Origin: Bacteroidia bacterium
GTDB lineage: Bacteria; Bacteroidota; Bacteroidia; NS11-12g; UBA955
Assembly: GCA_965655465.1 (NCBI GenBank)
Contig: CBFHGY010000005.1
Location: 1 to 54,638 of the forward strand
Direction of reading: 5' to 3'
DNA length: 54,638 bases
In this document: positions 8,432 to 46,070 of the stretch, in pieces
Numbering within the stretch: the stretch's first letter is position 1
Layout: each line of letters starts with the position of its first letter
Position numbers and translations under genes: made by a program
Notes under the pieces: model-generated
What the model saw: only the letters and a program-made list of their open reading frames with translations
Database searches by the model: none
Told to the model about the DNA's origin: nothing

Positions 8432-11053
8432 TTAGTTCTTCAATAATTTACCGGTATGTTTTGTACCATCTGCACCGATTACCTTTACGAAGTAATAGCC
8501 ATTACTTAAGCTCTCGATATTGATGTTCAATTTGTTTTCACCTTTGTTGCCGTTGTAAGTACCAGACAATACTACTTGTCCATTTAAATTCAATACGCTG
8601 TATTGACTTGCGCCTGAAACTGCAGAAGCAAATGTAATTTGTGTTTGGGACGTACTTGGATTCGGAGAAATCTTCACATTTGTAGCGCTTTTGGCTGCAA
8701 TTTTCTTGGTATTGGTCAATAAATTCTCTGTTTTGAAATATCCACGACCGTGAGTACCTGCGTAAATAGTCATACCTTCCCAAGGTCTCCATTCGTAGCC
8801 GCGCAATTCAAATACAGGCACACGCGCTAAACCATCGTTTGCTTCATCCCAAGTTGTACCACCATTTTCTGTAACCCAAATACCCAAATCAGTACCAATA
8901 ACAATACGTTTTGCATCATCTACGTCGATTACGGCATCGTATACAGGCATTGCGGGCAAGTTCCCAGTAATATTAGTAAAGGTTGGATTCTCAGCCAAAG
9001 CATCAAAAGATTGCAAAACATAAACAGTACGACCATAAGCACCTAAGGTTATTACCACATGGTTTGGATCTGCTGGATTGATACTAATTCCAGTTACAGT
9101 TCTACCGATAATTGCTGGGATATCTAATTTCTTGATTGCAATTTCCTTTGGGATATCGTTGGAACCGGGATTGGCTTCTAAGGTAAATTCTGCGTTGTTC
9201 AAATTCTCTAATCTCCACAACGCACCTGTTTTTGCAATAAATAAGTGATCACCATCTGGAGTATAATCCATTTCCACAATGCGATCGTTACCTAAATTAT
9301 TCGCAACTAAAAACCAATTTACATCCGAAGCAAAATCTGTAGGATTGATTGCGCACCATACTTGATTATTTTTTGCAAGATATAAACGCGATGTTACAGA
9401 ATCTTTTTCCCACAGGTTGTATGTGGTATAAAAATCTGATTGTACAGTTCCTGTTTGACGGTCATCCCAGAAAGTAGAAGAAGATTGACCGCTATTGGCA
9501 GAGCGCACCACACGACCGTAATAGGTAGACATGAATACAATACGAGGATCGATGCGACTAAATTCAACGTCAAAACCGTCACCACCATAAATACTAATAG
9601 CTGTTTGTGAAGGCTTTCCGTTAATTGAATTCCCACTGAAATTAATCAATTGTGTTCCATTGTCCTGAGCACCACCAACTACGTGACCCAATTCATTTGC
9701 GGCAACATTGTAGAGTTGTAAAGTTGTAAATCCGCGGTTTATGCTCGTCCACGTATTTAAATCCTTAGAAGAGTATAGACCACCGTCACAACCTACGATG
9801 CAAGTAGCTGGACTGGTACGCGTATTCCAAGTGATCAAGTGTTTGTCGGCATGCACATATTGACGATTCCAGGGAACATTGAACATGCTTGCCATCTGGC
9901 GATATCCATTAATGCTATCCCATTGTGCAAGATCTACTCCTCCTAAAATTACTTTATTTTTATCTGTTGGGAAAACACTGATACAGTTATCATACCAACC
10001 TTGACGGTTTGAACCGAAAATATCGTTTGATGAATTTCCTTGCATTAAGACGGTCCATGTTTTTCCACCATCTGTGGTACGAGAAAGATTGCCCAAACTA
10101 CCATCACCCTTCGCGCCTAAAGCATAAACGGTGTTGATATCTTGAGGAGCAACCGCTAAAGAAGTACGACCACCGGTATTGGCTCCAGTATTCATTGCGG
10201 TAAGTGCGGTTGCGTTTGCTTCCTTTTTATAAATAATTCCATTAGAAGTTGCACACCAAACGTTTGCATCTTTATCGATAACCAAGTCGCGAATTACCAA
10301 ACCGGCAATACGATTTAATTTAACCGGTGTGCTGCTGAAATCCAAATCAAACAGTCCAGATTCTGTAGCTACATAGATGATATCTTTACTTGGATGCGCA
10401 ACCATAGCATTACACTGCCAAAAACGATTATCCTTTGCAATGTCGAGTAGTGAGAAATCGGTTCCCTCATCATCGCTACTTACAAAAAGTCCAGATCCGT
10501 AAAAAGCGGGAGAACCGTTTTTGGTTCCTGCAAGGTTGGTAAATCCACCTTCACCGGTACCGTACACGATTTTTCCACTTCCGGATAATTGGGCCACACA
10601 AGTTACATTTAAATTTTCCTGCATATCATTTACAGGAGCCCAGCTTTGACCATACGTGTTTGATCGGAACAACCCACCACTAACACCTCCTGCAAACCAA
10701 ATTTCAGGTTTGCTTTGATGCATTAAGAATGCGCGAATACGCCCACCCACGTTATCGGGTCCCATACTCTGCCATTCGATTTTTTTATTAAGTCGTTTGG
10801 ATACGGACTGCATCGCGTCTGCTTGGGCAATTGCCGCAGCAACCCATTCAGGTTCTAAGGTATGGGTTTCTTCGTTCAAACGCATGCTATAGATAGACTC
10901 GATAGCGCCACGAATGCTTTGTTCTTTTTGGGTTTCCGATTCGTTGCTTTGCGCAAGGATGCCTTTGGGAGTGGTTTCATAGCTTCCCCAAAAAGCAATA
11001 CCAGCGGCTAAAGCTGCGGTAGAAAGTATAGGTAATATTCTTTTCATACTCAT
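8432..11053 (-). CDS. Secreted BNR/Asp-box beta-propeller protein with a T9SS type A C-terminal sorting domain
   Basis: N-terminal signal segment; Asp-box repeats (RSNTYGQSW, RTTDGGKTW, TENGGTTW); CTD ISPNPS...LSNGYYFVKV...TGKLLKN. Confidence 0.85.
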   Translation of the reverse strand: MSMKRILPILSTAALAAGIAFWGSYETTPKGILAQSNESETQKEQSIRGAIESIYSMRLNEETHTLEPEWVAAAIAQADAMQSVSKRLNKKIEWQSMGPDNVGGRIRAFLMHQSKPEIWFAGGVSGGLFRSNTYGQSWAPVNDMQENLNVTCVAQLSGSGKIVYGTGEGGFTNLAGTKNGSPAFYGSGLFVSSDDEGTDFSLLDIAKDNRFWQCNAMVAHPSKDIIYVATESGLFDLDFSSTPVKLNRIAGLVIRDLVIDKDANVWCATSNGIIYKKEANATALTAMNTGANTGGRTSLAVAPQDINTVYALGAKGDGSLGNLSRTTDGGKTWTVLMQGNSSNDIFGSNRQGWYDNCISVFPTDKNKVILGGVDLAQWDSINGYRQMASMFNVPWNRQYVHADKHLITWNTRTSPATCIVGCDGGLYSSKDLNTWTSINRGFTTLQLYNVAANELGHVVGGAQDNGTQLINFSGNSINGKPSQTAISIYGGDGFDVEFSRIDPRIVFMSTYYGRVVRSANSGQSSSTFWDDRQTGTVQSDFYTTYNLWEKDSVTSRLYLAKNNQVWCAINPTDFASDVNWFLVANNLGNDRIVEMDYTPDGDHLFIAKTGALWRLENLNNAEFTLEANPGSNDIPKEIAIKKLDIPAIIGRTVTGISINPADPNHVVITLGAYGRTVYVLQSFDALAENPTFTNITGNLPAMPVYDAVIDVDDAKRIVIGTDLGIWVTENGGTTWDEANDGLARVPVFELRGYEWRPWEGMTIYAGTHGRGYFKTENLLTNTKKIAAKSATNVKISPNPSTSQTQITFASAVSGASQYSVLNLNGQVVLSGTYNGNKGENKLNINIESLSNGYYFVKVIGADGTKHTGKLLKN

Positions 11054-39835: not shown

Positions 39836-42031
39836 TTATAATTTCTCTTTGAGTGGGATAAAAGTTTTCCCCGTATCATCAGACTTGTTTAGGATGTATG
39901 ATAATCCCATATGCAATTGAAAATACCAATCATTTAAGCCGTTGGTTGATCTTGCGGCCGTGGATGAAATCAAGTCATGCGTCGTTGAACCACCTGATAT
40001 TTTTGATAATTTCGCCGTTTGAAGACCATTATCTGCTCGAATGAATCCATTATCAGGATTTGAGAAATATTCATCCGACATTAATACTTCTAACCATCTA
40101 TCGTAATCACCACCGTACCAAACTCCGGGACCGTAATCATCCAAATAGTCCGTAAAGGTGTATACGGCCTTCATCTCACCTTTAAACGCCCAACGTTTGC
40201 GCAAATACGCCAATTGCCATGATAGCCCAATATTCCCTGAAAACAATCCATAGGGCTTCTTGTTTTCTAAGAAATTCTGTCCTTCCATTCCTAGTTTACG
40301 CAAGGAGGTGCGCTCTTCACTCCATAAACGTGCCTTATAATCTGAGTAAGATTCCTTACTTCCTTGATTTCTGTATGAGATACGATAAGGGGTATAGGTA
40401 AAAACACCCGCGCTAATTCCCATACTGTTGACAAACTTCCACTTTTGACCAGGCTTTAGATTGTATTTGCCAATATGCCATAAGCCCTCAATATCCCAAA
40501 TAACCATAGGTGTTACAAACATCAAAGGCCATGTATTTTTATAAATCTGAATTTTATCATAATTGGCTCCTTCTACAAAAGGAACTTTACCGCCAGAAAG
40601 CAATCCAGTTGCCCATAAATTATGCATGGAAACCGTAGAATGGTACAAATTTGATTTTACAGAAAATCTATTGGTAAAATTATATTGTGCATATCCTCCA
40701 TAACTAATTTCGATGGTACTTGGCATAGGAGCAAATTTGTGGCCGATATCTCCGCCACCGTAAATGGAACCGCCACCCCAAAAACCAAACTCCCAAGTTT
40801 TCAATTTTACGATGTCTTCTTTTTTACCAAACATCGGAACGATTACCATAAATCCGATTTTCGCTTTCAACGTTGTATCTGGCCACTCGGGACTAATTAA
40901 AGTGGTATCTACTTTGCGGTACAATGGAGGAGGTAATTGTGCCGGTGTCAATTTAGGAAGTTTGTACTTAACCCCATTTTGCATAGTAACCTCGGTAGGA
41001 TTACCCTCTAAATACGTAACATTCAACGTATCTGAAGAAAGCTTCTGATTAATATTAACGCTTCTGTTAAATGAATCCCTCACCGCTACTAATTTCACAT
41101 CTCCCACTACGTCTAAAACAATTTTGCCAAACTCATGCGTTGCGCCTAATATGAAAGGTTCGTTCCCTTTTCTCTCCTTCAAAGAACTTACCGCATCTAC
41201 TTTTATTTTAGGCAAACTGTTATCCATACGATTGTCGAATACGACATCGTTAATACTTGCATTTGAATAAATTGCCCCAGCATTGATTTCTAGAGGCAAG
41301 CCTGAACCACCGCTAACAGACAAACCCACATTAAAAAACCCAGAGTAATTATTTACAAAAGTTAAACTACCTAAATCGATATTTTCAGGGTTTGAATTGC
41401 GCGCAATATCCAAGTGCAATATACCCATACTTGAATTTTCACCCTCAATTTCATTATCGTTAAAAGTTAGGTCTTTCAAATGGTATTCGATTCCTTCGCT
41501 ACCCACCTTCTCCAAAATGATATTACTTCTATTGTTGTAAAAACGAGAATTGGAAATACTAAAATTGATAGATTTAGACTCCCTTAAATCTAAGTAGGGA
41601 TTTGATGTATAAAGTATAGGCTCCTTGTAATTAATGCTATGAATCTGAGCATTGCTAATTTCGACATTCTTACGATACCAAAATGGATCAAATCTCAAGA
41701 ACTGAACCAGTTCTTTTACATCTACATTCTTGAACTTTATATTTTGAGTTTCATTAATCCCACCAATAACTATACCTAATCCCGGATTGTTATCATCTTG
41801 AGATTTAATTTGAACCGGATTATCTACTGTACCCGTTACTTCCAAACCTCCATTCACAATAATTCTTGCCCCTGGTTCAAATACCAACGTTTGTCCTGCC
41901 TTTATTCGGAAAGTTTCGCCCGCTTCAATGGTTTTGGTCCCTGAAACCAAAATTTCATCGTTTTGCGCACTTACTACATCGAACATTACCAATGCGATGA
42001 TTATTGAAATGATATGAATTTTCTTTTTCAT
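39836..42031 (-). CDS. Fusion of an N-terminal beta-helix-like domain and a C-terminal DUF6089/PorG-like outer-membrane beta-barrel
   Basis: Signal peptide; TLVFEPGARIIVNGGLEVTGTVDNPVQIKS beta-helix entry motif with N/D-rich rungs; Pro-rich linker; barrel motifs WEFGFWGGGSIYGGGD, LRKLGMEGQ...KPY, YTFTDYLDDY, NDWYFQLHMGLSY. Confidence 0.7.
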   Translation of the reverse strand: MKKKIHIISIIIALVMFDVVSAQNDEILVSGTKTIEAGETFRIKAGQTLVFEPGARIIVNGGLEVTGTVDNPVQIKSQDDNNPGLGIVIGGINETQNIKFKNVDVKELVQFLRFDPFWYRKNVEISNAQIHSINYKEPILYTSNPYLDLRESKSINFSISNSRFYNNRSNIILEKVGSEGIEYHLKDLTFNDNEIEGENSSMGILHLDIARNSNPENIDLGSLTFVNNYSGFFNVGLSVSGGSGLPLEINAGAIYSNASINDVVFDNRMDNSLPKIKVDAVSSLKERKGNEPFILGATHEFGKIVLDVVGDVKLVAVRDSFNRSVNINQKLSSDTLNVTYLEGNPTEVTMQNGVKYKLPKLTPAQLPPPLYRKVDTTLISPEWPDTTLKAKIGFMVIVPMFGKKEDIVKLKTWEFGFWGGGSIYGGGDIGHKFAPMPSTIEISYGGYAQYNFTNRFSVKSNLYHSTVSMHNLWATGLLSGGKVPFVEGANYDKIQIYKNTWPLMFVTPMVIWDIEGLWHIGKYNLKPGQKWKFVNSMGISAGVFTYTPYRISYRNQGSKESYSDYKARLWSEERTSLRKLGMEGQNFLENKKPYGLFSGNIGLSWQLAYLRKRWAFKGEMKAVYTFTDYLDDYGPGVWYGGDYDRWLEVLMSDEYFSNPDNGFIRADNGLQTAKLSKISGGSTTHDLISSTAARSTNGLNDWYFQLHMGLSYILNKSDDTGKTFIPLKEKL

Positions 42032-42037
42032 TTTGAT

Positions 42038-43408
42038 TTACTTCACTTGAATCAATAATGGAGATTCAAACTCCATATTCTTTATTTCATTATTTATATC
42101 TGCGGATTCCACCACTACGTATCTCAGATTTTCTAAACCCTCTTTGGGTAGTTCAATAGTTTCAGTAGCAGAAACCATCAATTCATTAGATATCCCAACT
42201 AAACGATACCTCAAATTAGAGATTTTGTATTTAAAATTCTGCAAATCGGGATGACTTGCATATACACTCAATTTGTTATTTAAACGCAATCTAGTTTTTG
42301 CAATTGACCCTCCACTCACTCCTTTGGCATTTACAAATGGCCTTGGCAAGTTTTGAACATAAACCGAATCACGCAAAAGCAAACCACCCGTCGCATTATT
42401 TATTTGGAATTTACACCAACCAACGCGTTCTGGTGTAAAGATCACTTTGCTCTGTTGCTTATTAATAATTGGGTCTTTATCACAATCGCATGACAAATTT
42501 CCAATATTTAACAGATTTACATATTGCAACTCCGACGTTTTTCCCTCAAAAAAGATATTGTACTTATTCTCTTTTTCTTTTTCGAAATTCTTTGCAACAG
42601 AAGTTACTTTCAAATTCTCTTCTACTCCATTTTTCTTGAAACTCAAGTCATAAACACCCACATATTGAGGAATAAACAGCAATGTATCACCAGCCCATTT
42701 ATTTAGGGGGAAAATCTGATTGTTTTGTTTGGCTTCAACTTTAATTTCTTCGTGGTTGAAAACCACCACTTTTACCGTATCACCCGGACGAACGGCTTCA
42801 ATATTAAACGCCATCAGTATTAAATAATCCCGATTTTGCTCTTCAGTTGTGATGATCCCTCCGTGTAATAACTTCATTTTAAGTTTCAAGTCGGCCATCC
42901 AGGTAACAACTACTCCAATGGGCACATGTTTAAACTTCCACTCTACCCATAGGTTCGCCTTTCCTGCTTCTAATCCATTCATCAAATCGCCAGAAAACAA
43001 CTCTCGAAATTCCTTCTTTTTAGGATTATTATCAGGCAAGCCAAGGTAATAATCTCGGAGAATCACTAATTTATCAAATAACCTGTACCCTTTTTCTAAT
43101 CTTATAAAAAAGTTATCGGTAAGGTTATAGGCATCTATTCCCTTATGTAAGGTTTCTTTATCATCGTATCCTACAAGTTTCCTAAAACCGCTCTCGATTT
43201 CAGTTACATTATCATAAACATCTTTAACCACAGGTTCGTCAAAAACTACTTTTGTGGATCGTTCCATATATTCTGCAAGCGTCACGTTTGTACGTAACCA
43301 TTCGATAGGAATTTGCAACATACTTAATGATATAAAAATCAAGTACATTACACTAATAAGTTTGAAGCGTAAAACTTTAGCCTTTTTAACTCTAACGTAA
43401 TTCCCCAT
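42038..43408 (-). CDS. GldM/PorM-like single-pass inner-membrane protein (paralog A)
   Basis: RFKLISVMYLIFISLSMLQIPIE aligns with the GldM TM motif RQKMINLMYLVF...E; helical domain then Ig-like domains; ends SPLLIQVK. Confidence 0.75.
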   Translation of the reverse strand: MGNYVRVKKAKVLRFKLISVMYLIFISLSMLQIPIEWLRTNVTLAEYMERSTKVVFDEPVVKDVYDNVTEIESGFRKLVGYDDKETLHKGIDAYNLTDNFFIRLEKGYRLFDKLVILRDYYLGLPDNNPKKKEFRELFSGDLMNGLEAGKANLWVEWKFKHVPIGVVVTWMADLKLKMKLLHGGIITTEEQNRDYLILMAFNIEAVRPGDTVKVVVFNHEEIKVEAKQNNQIFPLNKWAGDTLLFIPQYVGVYDLSFKKNGVEENLKVTSVAKNFEKEKENKYNIFFEGKTSELQYVNLLNIGNLSCDCDKDPIINKQQSKVIFTPERVGWCKFQINNATGGLLLRDSVYVQNLPRPFVNAKGVSGGSIAKTRLRLNNKLSVYASHPDLQNFKYKISNLRYRLVGISNELMVSATETIELPKEGLENLRYVVVESADINNEIKNMEFESPLLIQVK

Positions 43409-43409
43409 A

Positions 43410-44822
43410 TTATCCTTTGATTTTTAAAATTGGGCGGCCTTTTGAACTCACACCGCCCTCTTGACCCAACAAACGGATATTATCAAATATCAACACACTC
43501 CCCTTGGGGGCTTTTTCCTCCAATTCCCGCAAATCGTTTCTCAAAAAACGTGTGGTAGAATGTATTTTTTTAAATTTACCATCGGGATATGTAACACTCA
43601 TATCAAAATCAACTACTTGCCAAAATGGATTTACTGATTCCAATTTATTTGCGTTTCCTAATTCGGAAATTTCACCGCTTACACCCATTAAAGCAACCGT
43701 TTCATCCGGCTTTAAAGTAGATACAAATGATGCCTTATCTATAATGTTATTCCCATTTTTCATTACAACATCAAATACTCCTTCTGATTCAGGTACAATT
43801 TGCAAAATCCATCCTTTGCGTGTAATTGAAGCTGCATTCGACTCAAAAGTCACCGCATTACCTCGTGGAACATAACTTGAATCTAGAGTAACGATGATAG
43901 GCTCCCCAACAAAACCAGAAATACTCGTTCCGCTATTGATATATCGAAACATTGGAGGTACCACTTTAAAATTCGTAAAAATGCGCTTTTCATTGGACAT
44001 TATTTCCAAAGAATACGCTCCAATTCGACTAGGTTTGTAAAGCAGATTGTAGGTAGCCACTCCAATAGAATCCAATTTTATAGGCATTCCATTAATTTTA
44101 GCGGATAATACATCACTCGCTGTTTTGGGTCTTAGTTTAATACTGAGGGGTTCTCCAAGAATTAAGTTGCGTTTGAATTTCTGAATAAATTCAGTTTCAT
44201 CTAAAGATACAATTTCAAACTTGGGTAATTCGGATTCTTTATTTTTTAAGGTCAGTATCGTTTCATAAAGCATCACAGTTTTAAAATGCTCTATTATCGA
44301 AGGAACGACTCCATTAGGAGTTCCTTTGAAGAAATAATATACCGCTTCAATATCTTGGCCTTCCGTAGAGGTGTAGGTAACAAACTCCTTTTTTAAGTTT
44401 TTATTACCGATAGGACTATAGGCTTTTAAATATCTTTCAAAAATTCCTCTTAATTCAGGAGCCCATTTGCCATTTCGCACTTGAATTTCAGCAAATTTAT
44501 TTTCTCTTAATCGATCCCCTATTACGCCTGTATTCTTTTTGAAATCATCGTATGCTTTCGCTATTACTTCAAGTTCTTGAATACAAGAAAGGGTCGCCTT
44601 TTTAAGTGCGATTTCTTTTTCTCCCTTGGCTTTAAAAACGTTAAGTTCAGAAATCAAACGTTCGTTCACCATGATTTGAGATCTTGCAACATCTGGATAC
44701 TGCAAAACATACATACCTGGGGAGGTAAAAAAGATTTGTACAATGAAAATCAAATAGAACAAAGACAATCTCATAAATGAGATATTCTTTGACTTTGTGA
44801 CTTTTACGGTGAGATTTCCCAT
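43410..44822 (-). CDS. GldM/PorM-like single-pass inner-membrane protein (paralog B, divergent TM)
   Basis: Shares the MGN start and YLIFI TM motif with paralog A; C-terminal WQVVDFDMSV...KGSVLIFDNIR resembles the GldM C-terminal domain. Confidence 0.68.
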   Translation of the reverse strand: MGNLTVKVTKSKNISFMRLSLFYLIFIVQIFFTSPGMYVLQYPDVARSQIMVNERLISELNVFKAKGEKEIALKKATLSCIQELEVIAKAYDDFKKNTGVIGDRLRENKFAEIQVRNGKWAPELRGIFERYLKAYSPIGNKNLKKEFVTYTSTEGQDIEAVYYFFKGTPNGVVPSIIEHFKTVMLYETILTLKNKESELPKFEIVSLDETEFIQKFKRNLILGEPLSIKLRPKTASDVLSAKINGMPIKLDSIGVATYNLLYKPSRIGAYSLEIMSNEKRIFTNFKVVPPMFRYINSGTSISGFVGEPIIVTLDSSYVPRGNAVTFESNAASITRKGWILQIVPESEGVFDVVMKNGNNIIDKASFVSTLKPDETVALMGVSGEISELGNANKLESVNPFWQVVDFDMSVTYPDGKFKKIHSTTRFLRNDLRELEEKAPKGSVLIFDNIRLLGQEGGVSSKGRPILKIKG

Positions 44823-44831
44823 TGTAGAAGA

Positions 44832-45335
44832 TTACTTCTTCAGAATATCGTTATACTGTTCGTTGATTTTTTTCAAATTTTCGTTGTAACCGGTCATTAA
44901 GTTATTGAACTCTGTAACTGATTGCTTCATGTTATTTGATTGTTCAACGTTAGACCGCATTTCCGTTTTAATTTCATTAACCGCCTTGGTCATTTCCATC
45001 AAACCGTTGTTCAACTCCTTTAAAGTTTCACTAAACTGCTGCATAGCAGACTGGTATCCATTGGTTTGAACTTCAACGCCACGCTCATCCACGTTATCCA
45101 ATTGTGGAAATACCTGCTCCCATTGATATTCTTTCTCGGTTACTTTTCTTTCAAAAGCTGAAATCAAGAACACGATTGCTTCAACCGTAAGACCCACGAT
45201 GAACATTTCGTTGGCATAGTTCCAACCTAAAAATTTGAACATCGCACCGACCAATACGATTGCAGCACCAACTCCATAGATAAAGGTAACGGTATCTAAT
45301 TTACCTTTTTGTTCTTTTTGATTCATATTACTCAT
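44832..45335 (-). CDS. GldL/PorL-like two-TM motor subunit (short)
   Basis: FIYGVGAAIVLVGAMFK...GLTVEAIVFLISAFE...YQWEQVFPQL followed by a coiled-coil tail. Confidence 0.88.
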   Translation of the reverse strand: MSNMNQKEQKGKLDTVTFIYGVGAAIVLVGAMFKFLGWNYANEMFIVGLTVEAIVFLISAFERKVTEKEYQWEQVFPQLDNVDERGVEVQTNGYQSAMQQFSETLKELNNGLMEMTKAVNEIKTEMRSNVEQSNNMKQSVTEFNNLMTGYNENLKKINEQYNDILKK

Positions 45336-45364
45336 ACTTGTAATTTTATAATGGGTTTTGTGTT

Positions 45365-45877
45365 TTACTTTTTAAGAATGTGTTCCTGAAATGAATTCCA
45401 ATTGGCAACATTTTGCTTCAAGGCTCTTTTAGTAGCTGCCTTGTTTAATATTACAAAGGCAACTAGCAATACGAATAAGGCACTTACCGAAACTACTAAT
45501 TGGTCTGCAAACTTCTTAGCCATCTCTTCCTTAACGCCATCAACTAATTTATTCTGTTGTTCGAATTTTTCCGCAAATTGATCCAACGCAATATTCATAG
45601 CGCGCTCATTCTGTGCTTGAAGTTCTAAACTTTTTTTCATCTCAGATTGAACCGCTTCTTTATTGGTCTGCAATTCAGTTTTCATTAAAAACAATGCACT
45701 TTCTAATTCGGTGATTCGTTGTGCATATTGCAAGTTTTGTTTTTGCAATCGTTCCAATTTTTGATCTAATTCGTTCGTTTTAATTGCATTATCTGTTTGA
45801 GCATAACTCAAAGAGCTTGAAATAAAAGCAATAACTAAGAGTATTAGTTTATACATTGTGATAGAGGGTTTATTCAT
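45365..45877 (-). CDS. Hypothetical coiled-coil protein with a signal peptide and a C-terminal TM anchor
   Basis: Start is ATG 45877 or 45856 (MYKLILLVIAFISSSLSYAQ); long heptad-rich region; hydrophobic VVSVSALFVLLVAFVIL near the C-terminus. Confidence 0.7.
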   Translation of the reverse strand: MNKPSITMYKLILLVIAFISSSLSYAQTDNAIKTNELDQKLERLQKQNLQYAQRITELESALFLMKTELQTNKEAVQSEMKKSLELQAQNERAMNIALDQFAEKFEQQNKLVDGVKEEMAKKFADQLVVSVSALFVLLVAFVILNKAATKRALKQNVANWNSFQEHILKK

Positions 45878-46070
45878 ACAAAAATCGCTGCGAAGATATG
45901 ACATATTTTGAAATTCAATGATGTTTTATATATTACGTTTATAACAATTGATTTTTTTTATTTATTAAAAACCTCGTTTACAATAAGCAGATTGCAAAAA
46001 TCAGACCAAACCCTATATCCCCAAATACCAATAATCCGTTACTTAAATTTATTCTTTAGTTTTGCATGTC

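Follow-up and report, generated by a model that had tools for sequence, protein, structure and literature searches.

A paralogous GldLM-type gene module, putatively encoding an envelope-spanning motor, beside the canonical type IX secretion operon of a Bacteroidia genome

To our knowledge, GldLM is one of the few known classes of ion-driven motor in the cell envelope, and its only described role is to power type IX secretion and gliding. In Flavobacterium johnsoniae, Glu49 of GldL is needed for secretion (PMC8986121), its salt bridge with Arg9 of GldM is described as a conserved feature of GldLM and PorLM (PMC8986121; bioRxiv 10.1101/2022.01.28.478170), and GldL Glu59 is reported to be necessary for movement of SprB and not for secretion (PMC8986121); one review recognises two length classes among GldL proteins. 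Here we consider a five-gene locus on the minus strand (39836-45904) of a 54,638-nucleotide stretch of DNA from a Bacteroidia bacterium (the window; assembly GCA_965655465.1, contig CBFHGY010000005.1), which encodes a short GldL paralogue (GldL', g2), two GldM paralogues (M3 and M4, g3 and g4), a predicted beta-helix/barrel protein (g5) and a predicted coiled-coil membrane protein (g1). We think it probable that this module is a self-contained, envelope-spanning machine built on a proton-driven motor paralogous to GldLM/PorLM, standing alongside the canonical type IX secretion system (T9SS) and not forming part of it. The original prediction, made from the letters of the window, had likewise proposed a separate trans-periplasmic machine, and the canonical gene set found elsewhere in the genome, the distinct clades of the module proteins and their homology to GldM support that reading.

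The genome (2.56 Mb, 89% complete) carries a porP-gldK-gldL-gldM-gldN operon on contig C16, each gene of which scores over its NCBIfam cut-off, a single copy of SprA on contig C6 and 77 matches to Por_Secre_tail, the T9SS C-terminal signal domain. Because these canonical components lie elsewhere in the genome, the five-gene locus is an additional paralogous system beside the canonical operon, as had been supposed from a protein with a T9SS C-terminal domain encoded in the window; this domain lies at 8456-8671 (minus strand; Por_Secre_tail, E = 8.5e-13) and closes an 880-amino-acid (aa) open frame. Pfam and NCBIfam searches identified no domain of GldK, an FGE-sulfatase-like lipoprotein, or of GldN in the five genes, neither g1 nor g5 giving such a match, in agreement with the view that unrelated genes occupy the gldK and gldN positions, and the true gldK and gldN are those on C16. 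Identification of the locus as a second complete T9SS was rejected, there being a single SprA and a single gldK/gldN set in the genome.

The product of the second gene (44832-45335, minus strand; 167 aa), which had been called GldL-like, scores 89.2 bits against Pfam GldL_N (PF22827; E = 2e-25, cut-off 24) and 92 bits against TIGR03513 (cut-off 68.3), the latter alignment covering only positions 5-68 of 247 in the model. Comparison of orthologue profiles by hhalign relates it to canonical GldL with a probability of 99.7% (E = 2e-26) over the transmembrane (TM) hairpin and membrane-proximal region only (residues 14-117). GldL' has two TM helices and a cytoplasmic coiled coil that is shortened in its central region, followed by a C-terminal motif, NLKKINEQYNDIL, which resembles the canonical NLxxLNxVYGxMLxAM and can be seen by eye in most of the paralogues. 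The names given to such proteins in public annotation vary, and include GldL, YukE, methyl-accepting chemotaxis protein and prefoldin. Three residues of the canonical hairpin (F. johnsoniae numbering) are invariant in all 115 GldL' paralogues aligned, namely the equivalents of Tyr13 (Tyr in 16/17 canonical proteins), Lys27 (17/17) and Glu49 (17/17), the last of these being Glu52 of GldL' in the window.

The two following genes, M3 (43410-44822, minus strand; 470 aa) and M4 (42038-43408, minus strand; 456 aa), correspond respectively to the GldM-like B and GldM-like A proteins of the original prediction. At the level of profiles both are homologous to canonical GldM over their full length (98.0%, E = 1.6e-13 for M3; 99.2%, E = 2e-19 for M4), as are those relatives from loci with a single GldM' gene (100%, E = 3.5e-48), and M3 and M4 are related to one another (99.7%, E = 1.6e-26). 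Single-sequence matches are weaker: M4 matches Pfam GldM_1st at E = 1e-3 (19.5 bits, under the cut-off of 25), M3 has no Pfam match and neither matches TIGR03517, and more distant relatives of the module match both GldM_1st and GldM_4th. Searched against the Protein Data Bank (PDB), the M4 profile finds GldM/PorM chains 7cmg (E = 7.8e-8), 7sau, 7saz and 6ys8, and these profile comparisons confirm M4 as a full-length GldM homologue. For M3, the more divergent of the two copies, an AlphaFold2 (AF2) model with a mean predicted local distance difference test score (pLDDT) of 86.3 comprises a TM helix (residues 10-33), a helical D1 domain (38-193) and three beta domains, and its best PDB matches by Foldseek are PorM 7cmg (E = 6e-16), GldM 6ey4 (E = 1.5e-14) and C-terminal fragments of PorM, so that the predicted structure confirms a GldM/PorM fold; the fold evidence from AF2 thus covers M3, and that for M4 consists of profiles. 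The possibility that the two M-like proteins lack the GldM fold is contradicted by these results.

The two copies differ at the residues associated with the motor. At the position of GldM Arg9, eight residues before the conserved tyrosine (Y-8), Arg is found in 17/17 M4, 15/15 single-M and 17/17 canonical proteins, and in none of 34 M3 proteins, which have Ser (22), Asn (6), Ile (5) or Thr (1), that of the window having Ser. Three residues deeper, at Y-5, all 34 M3 proteins instead carry Lys or Arg, where M4, the single-M proteins and canonical GldM (17/17) are hydrophobic. The equivalent of Tyr17 is Tyr throughout M3 (34/34) and M4 (17/17; the motif of the window's M4 reads LRFKLISVMYLIF). 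In both M3 and M4 the N-terminal/TM segment is the best conserved part of the protein (60-62% identity, vs 27-42% elsewhere), and the D4 tip is better conserved in M3 (42%) than in M4 (27%).

These patterns bear upon whether the module moves at all, since a static trans-envelope tether or scaffold of GldLM descent, which ties the outer to the inner membrane or positions g5 and undergoes no ion-driven movement, might be expected to show the substitution of His30 in GldL' by Gly, the loss of Arg9 from M3 and the shortening of the GldL' cytoplasmic region. We nevertheless regard such a tether as quite improbable, given that the equivalents of the second TM helix Glu, Tyr13 and Lys27 are invariant in 115/115 paralogues, that M4 and the single-M proteins without exception have Arg9 and Tyr17, and that it is the membrane segment of M3 and M4 that is most conserved. 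Buried charged residues conserved in this way are hard to account for without ion coupling, and because the buried Glu, Lys, Tyr and Arg are invariant, the alignments favour an ion-coupled module over a tether that is purely static.

The last gene, g5 (39836-42031, minus strand; 731 aa), encodes the presumptive outer-membrane (OM) partner. Its AF2 model, built upon an alignment of 30 sequences (pLDDT 76.7), contains a signal peptide (1-23), a right-handed beta-helix (24-~260), an immunoglobulin (Ig)-like sandwich (~275-357), a disordered linker (369-401) and an 8-stranded barrel (409-714), which Foldseek places with barrels of the OmpA/OmpW/OmpX/Ail type (9fzc, E = 3.4e-5, TMt 0.69). The protein of the window has no Pfam domain above the gathering score, DUF6089 included, and its profile gives no match by sequence in the PDB; it matches NCBIfam T9SS_PorG (NF052316) at E = 7e-8 (32.4 bits, under the cut-off of 130), and DUF6089 is matched by 10 of 30 relatives (best E = 3e-20). 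The barrel is accordingly best described as PorG/DUF6089-like, and the proposed fusion of a beta-helix to a DUF6089 barrel is upheld by the model and structural matches and, as to the family of the barrel, by NCBIfam and by DUF6089 matches in relatives. Both termini of 8-stranded OM barrels face the periplasm, and for this reason the beta-helix module of the g5 model is placed in the periplasm, hanging from the outer membrane where the tip of the shaft lies.

Three further features of g5 and its relatives were noted. The most conserved barrel motifs, LGxEGQN and TDYLDD (residues ~574-586 and ~626-640; window 40130-40310 and 39995-40150), sit in long loops between strands 5-6 and 7-8 that are expected from strand counting to face outwards. 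The first turns of the beta-helix (residues ~22-100, window 41734-41968) match a ~60-aa repeat that occurs in 4-14 copies in giant proteins of 1,000-7,663 aa within a representative library. Some relatives of g5 are ~1,010-1,035 aa long (L010:1108-4215; P0123, P0124), and so exceed the usual 670-780 aa by ~300 residues.

Relatives of GldL' amount to 131 proteins of 155-210 aa in a collection of 5.8 billion proteins, and genomic contexts were drawn from assemblies, from named genome records and from an even sample of 401 Bacteroidia genomes (of many thousands). The core order GldL'-GldM'(x1-2)-g5 is shared by over 30 loci, drawn from at least 9 GTDB families, and is kept in 17/17 sampled genomes with flanks examined as well as in loci of metagenome-assembled genomes (MAGs) from public collections; named records with the module include Croceimicrobium sp. 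MAGs, Flavobacteriales UBA7878, a Bacteroidales MAG and others. Full-length g5 is present in ~21 of the 401 sampled genomes (~5%), from families f1, f59, f67, f71, f80, f91, f101 and f105, with the ninth family, f2, coming from the GldL survey, and stand-alone proteins of 270-330 aa that match just the barrel part are present in 371/401. Canonical gldL also occurs in 21/21 carriers of the module, and gldL-gldM-gldN was confirmed in 16 of these. No match to GldL_N was obtained in ~300 genomes of other Bacteroidota classes.

Values of dN/dS lie between 0.02 and 0.10 for every gene (unsaturated pairs), and the module genes are thus under strong purifying selection. Decay of a gldLM duplicate, or a chance juxtaposition of genes without function, might be suggested by the want of a Pfam match above the gathering score for M3 and g5 of the window; with all frames intact, AF2 models that are confident and an order of genes conserved over at least nine families, this explanation is extremely improbable, and the gene order and dN/dS values already contradict it.

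Two subtypes of the module can be distinguished: one, as in the window, has two M genes together with g1, and the other has a single GldM' of 510-590 aa and lacks g1. At the position equivalent to Glu59, GldL' proteins retain Glu, Gln or Asp; among the loci compared, Glu itself is found throughout the two-M loci of the main clade, is absent from a two-M locus of a Bacteroidales MAG (L007), and occurs in one one-M locus only (L063). In quick-search trees with long branches the paralogous GldM' and GldL' clades each split from the canonical proteins (SH-aLRT 100 each); with the operon on C16, this tells against the module being the sole gldL/gldM pair of the genome and grouping with canonical GldLM. 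M3 and M4 are each monophyletic and are sisters (support 97) with congruent subtrees, a topology which points to one old duplication as their origin. The M pair of L007 falls outside both the M3 and M4 clades, its GldL' groups with the one-M types, and forcing its first M copy into the M3 clade is disfavoured (approximately unbiased test, p = 0.026, post hoc and with long branches); tentatively, the two-M state of L007 may have arisen by an independent duplication.

As side observations on the distribution, which is patchy, four genomes of the window's own order (G426, G529, G659, G635) carry the one-M subtype, and three genomes of its own family are without the module. A PAS/HisKA sensor kinase is encoded near the module in seven loci of both subtypes (L004:13593-14648, L011:11772-12839, L012, L021, L063, L065, L066), in varying position and orientation, and directly after g5 some one-M loci have another gene in the same direction, of 617-875 aa (L063:11335-13317, L065:12321-14174, L066:12404-14392, L005:12414-15041, L053), perhaps an extra component of this subtype. 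One genome has, besides its canonical copy, a second full gldK-gldL-gldM-gldN-like operon with a GldL of 161 aa (L070; G083:C1:521245-535379). Weak second matches to GldL_N (E 1e-6 to 1e-8) occur in frames of 77-227 aa (e.g. G363:C11:678454-678780, G035:C1:777936-778064, G243:C1:317483-317578), which by sequence may be further small GldL_N-like membrane proteins.

The same contexts bear on whether the module works independently of the T9SS. It could instead be an auxiliary or alternative motor coupled to the canonical T9SS/gliding apparatus: the g5 barrel would dock at the SprA translocon or at the ring of GldK and GldN, and GldL'M' would power a specialised subset of secretion or of adhesin movement. 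This would fit the membership of the g5 barrel in the PorG/DUF6089 family, since NCBIfam names PorG a T9SS protein, the presence of a canonical T9SS in every carrier, and the C-terminal motif in which GldL' resembles canonical GldL, and by which it could bind the same cytoplasmic partner. However, the module has inner-membrane, shaft and outer-membrane parts of its own, and only these three travel together; no T9SS gene is among the conserved neighbours; the stand-alone DUF6089 barrels of 371/401 Bacteroidia indicate that this type of barrel is not specific to the T9SS ring; and the genome has one SprA only. On balance we consider an accessory of the T9SS unlikely.

The self-contained motor remains the reading we favour, and several observations weigh against it. 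Co-occurrence with a canonical T9SS is uninformative, for the one reading as for the other, because 99/100 sampled Bacteroidia have GldL. A conserved neighbour beyond the core, which might hint at a substrate, was looked for across the loci and none was found, and the carriers seen are all MAGs, with no cultured carrier among the named records. Matches of the g5 beta-helix to PL6 alginate lyases and tailspikes are weak (E ~1e-3 to 1e-2). Lastly, the His30 position is Gly in 113/115 and Ala in 2/115 GldL' paralogues, as against His in 17/17 canonical proteins, and because His30 is replaced by Gly the ion path in GldL' may differ from the canonical one. His30 was reportedly among the residues mutated in an F. 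johnsoniae study.

The remaining gene, g1, has its longest open reading frame (ORF) at 45365-45904 (minus strand). The start at 45877 given in the original prediction is less likely than the ATG at 45856, the sole start common to the homologues, and the same applies to 45904. From 45856 (MYKLILL...) g1 encodes a predicted bitopic inner-membrane protein of 163 aa. Its signal peptide (...SYAQ) precedes a coiled coil in the periplasm, which has QAQNERAxNLALDxFxxKFEEQN as a conserved motif, and a C-terminal TM helix leads to a short tail in the cytoplasm, in which the Trp and Phe of W-N-x-F are invariant; across an alignment of 12 homologues the invariant residues are Q98, E100, Q117, N118, W169 and F172. 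Pfam and NCBIfam return only weak coiled-coil matches. In the comparison of loci g1 is restricted to those with two M genes. The 344-aa protein at the g1 position of L007 has a similar architecture and matches the g1 profile over the signal peptide only; it is a candidate homologue of g1.

The five genes most likely form one operon. As had been read from the sequence and is borne out by the ORF list, they are co-oriented and separated by gaps of 29, 9, 1 and 6 nt; M4 starts 1 nt after the M3 stop, and in most loci the M3 stop and M4 start adjoin or overlap by 1 nt. A promoter-like element at 45891-45919 (minus strand) comprises a -33-like TTG (45918-45916) and the -7-like TATCTTCG (45898-45891; consensus TAnnTTTG), the latter already noticed in the original prediction at the front of the locus. 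At the aligned position the closest relative, L009 (51-90% protein identity), has TATCTTTG, a perfect match to the Bacteroidetes -7 consensus, with TTG ~17 nt upstream; because L009 is so close a relative, this conservation is weak evidence for a promoter. The strong terminator proposed at the other end is recovered as an intrinsic-terminator-like hairpin (39818-39793, minus strand) that begins 17 nt past the g5 stop codon, in which AAAAATCCCAC-GAGA-GTGGGATTTTT forms an 11-bp stem and is followed by a T-rich tail.

For such a machine we infer a stoichiometry, an M3:M4 heterodimer, a contact between shaft and g5, dependence upon the proton motive force (PMF), rotation and an output, in the following scheme. 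GldL' would form an ion-conducting ring in the inner membrane, in which protonation and deprotonation of Glu52 in its second TM helix would drive motion relative to the two GldM' TM helices at the centre. In the two-M subtype this pair would most likely be an M3:M4 heterodimer, M4 providing the canonical Arg and M3 a Lys or Arg one helical turn deeper. The shaft, with its four domains, would span the periplasm, and its D4 tips would engage g5 at the periplasmic beta-helix/Ig module; g5, anchored in the outer membrane through its 8-stranded PorG/DUF6089-type barrel, would replace the GldK/GldN ring. The g1 protein would be an accessory of the two-M subtype only, possibly an anchor or scaffold. 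As to output, we would guess that the motor does mechanical work on g5 at the outer membrane, as in the handling of a surface glycan or polymer.

Tight coupling of the genes, congruence of the M3 and M4 subtrees and complementary retention (Arg in M4, the D4 tip in M3) favour the heterodimer, without amounting to proof. It is possible, though we would put it somewhat short of an even chance, that the two-M subtype goes further and is a naturally asymmetric motor, with a GldL' ring around an obligate M3:M4 axle in which ion coupling is the speciality of M4 and the output tip that of M3. Were this so, the power stroke would have two halves hard-wired to differ, and the family would be a class of GldLM motors independent of the T9SS, driving a beta-helix protein in the outer membrane; and if the L007 duplication was independent, the asymmetry itself would have been selected.

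In either event the unequal GldM pair offers a natural experiment on 5:2 motors, as to how five ring subunits can serve two axle subunits and whether both charged residues are needed. A second module, conserved and with its motor core retained, would mean that GldLM is a reusable power unit, like MotAB, ExbBD and TolQR. Furthermore, what holds GldL still is noted as unknown in motor reviews (PMC9389320), and g1 and the short tail of GldL' are new candidates for this role. In the portions of the literature that full-text searches reach, no description of such an operon, nor of DUF6089, was found, in line with the original prediction, whose author knew of none for this architecture.

Compared with the canonical GldLM/PorLM system, the module keeps the two-TM GldL_N hairpin with its Tyr13, Lys27 and Glu49 equivalents, the GldM plan of one TM helix (in M4 with the R-x-K-x5-Y motif), a helical D1 and three beta domains, and adjacent, translationally coupled genes, and is confined to Bacteroidia in our sample. 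It differs in that the operon is without gldK and gldN, has a beta-helix/barrel fusion as its outer-membrane partner and adds a coiled-coil inner-membrane protein; in a GldL that is short (155-210 aa) with Gly for His30; in a GldM duplicated, in the two-M subtype, into unequal copies, one of which lacks Arg9; and in proteins that form separate clades and occur in ~5% of genomes, always besides the canonical operon. Similarly, g5 resembles the PorG/DUF6089 barrels in its C-terminal 8-stranded barrel, with a weak T9SS_PorG match and relatives that match DUF6089, but adds an N-terminal periplasmic beta-helix and Ig-like module of ~380 aa, which the stand-alone barrels of 270-330 aa do not have.

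More distant systems offer parallels of organisation. The AglR/AglQ/AglS gliding motor of Myxococcus likewise has one ring-forming subunit and two different axle paralogues, and provides a precedent for an axle that is possibly heterodimeric, although whether AglQ and AglS form a heterodimer is stated to be unknown (review PMC9389320). This motor belongs to the MotAB/TolQR class, unrelated to GldLM, and has neither a long periplasmic shaft nor a dedicated outer-membrane barrel. In the Ton (ExbBD-TonB and TonB-dependent transporter, TBDT) and Tol-Pal systems, as in the module, an inner-membrane motor, there driven by the PMF, is encoded together with a protein that spans the periplasm and a partner in the outer membrane. 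These systems have no sequence relationship to the module, however, and the shaft of the module is predicted to be a rigid four-domain dimer of the GldM type, acting upon an 8-stranded barrel with a beta-helix in place of a 22-strand transporter or a lipoprotein.

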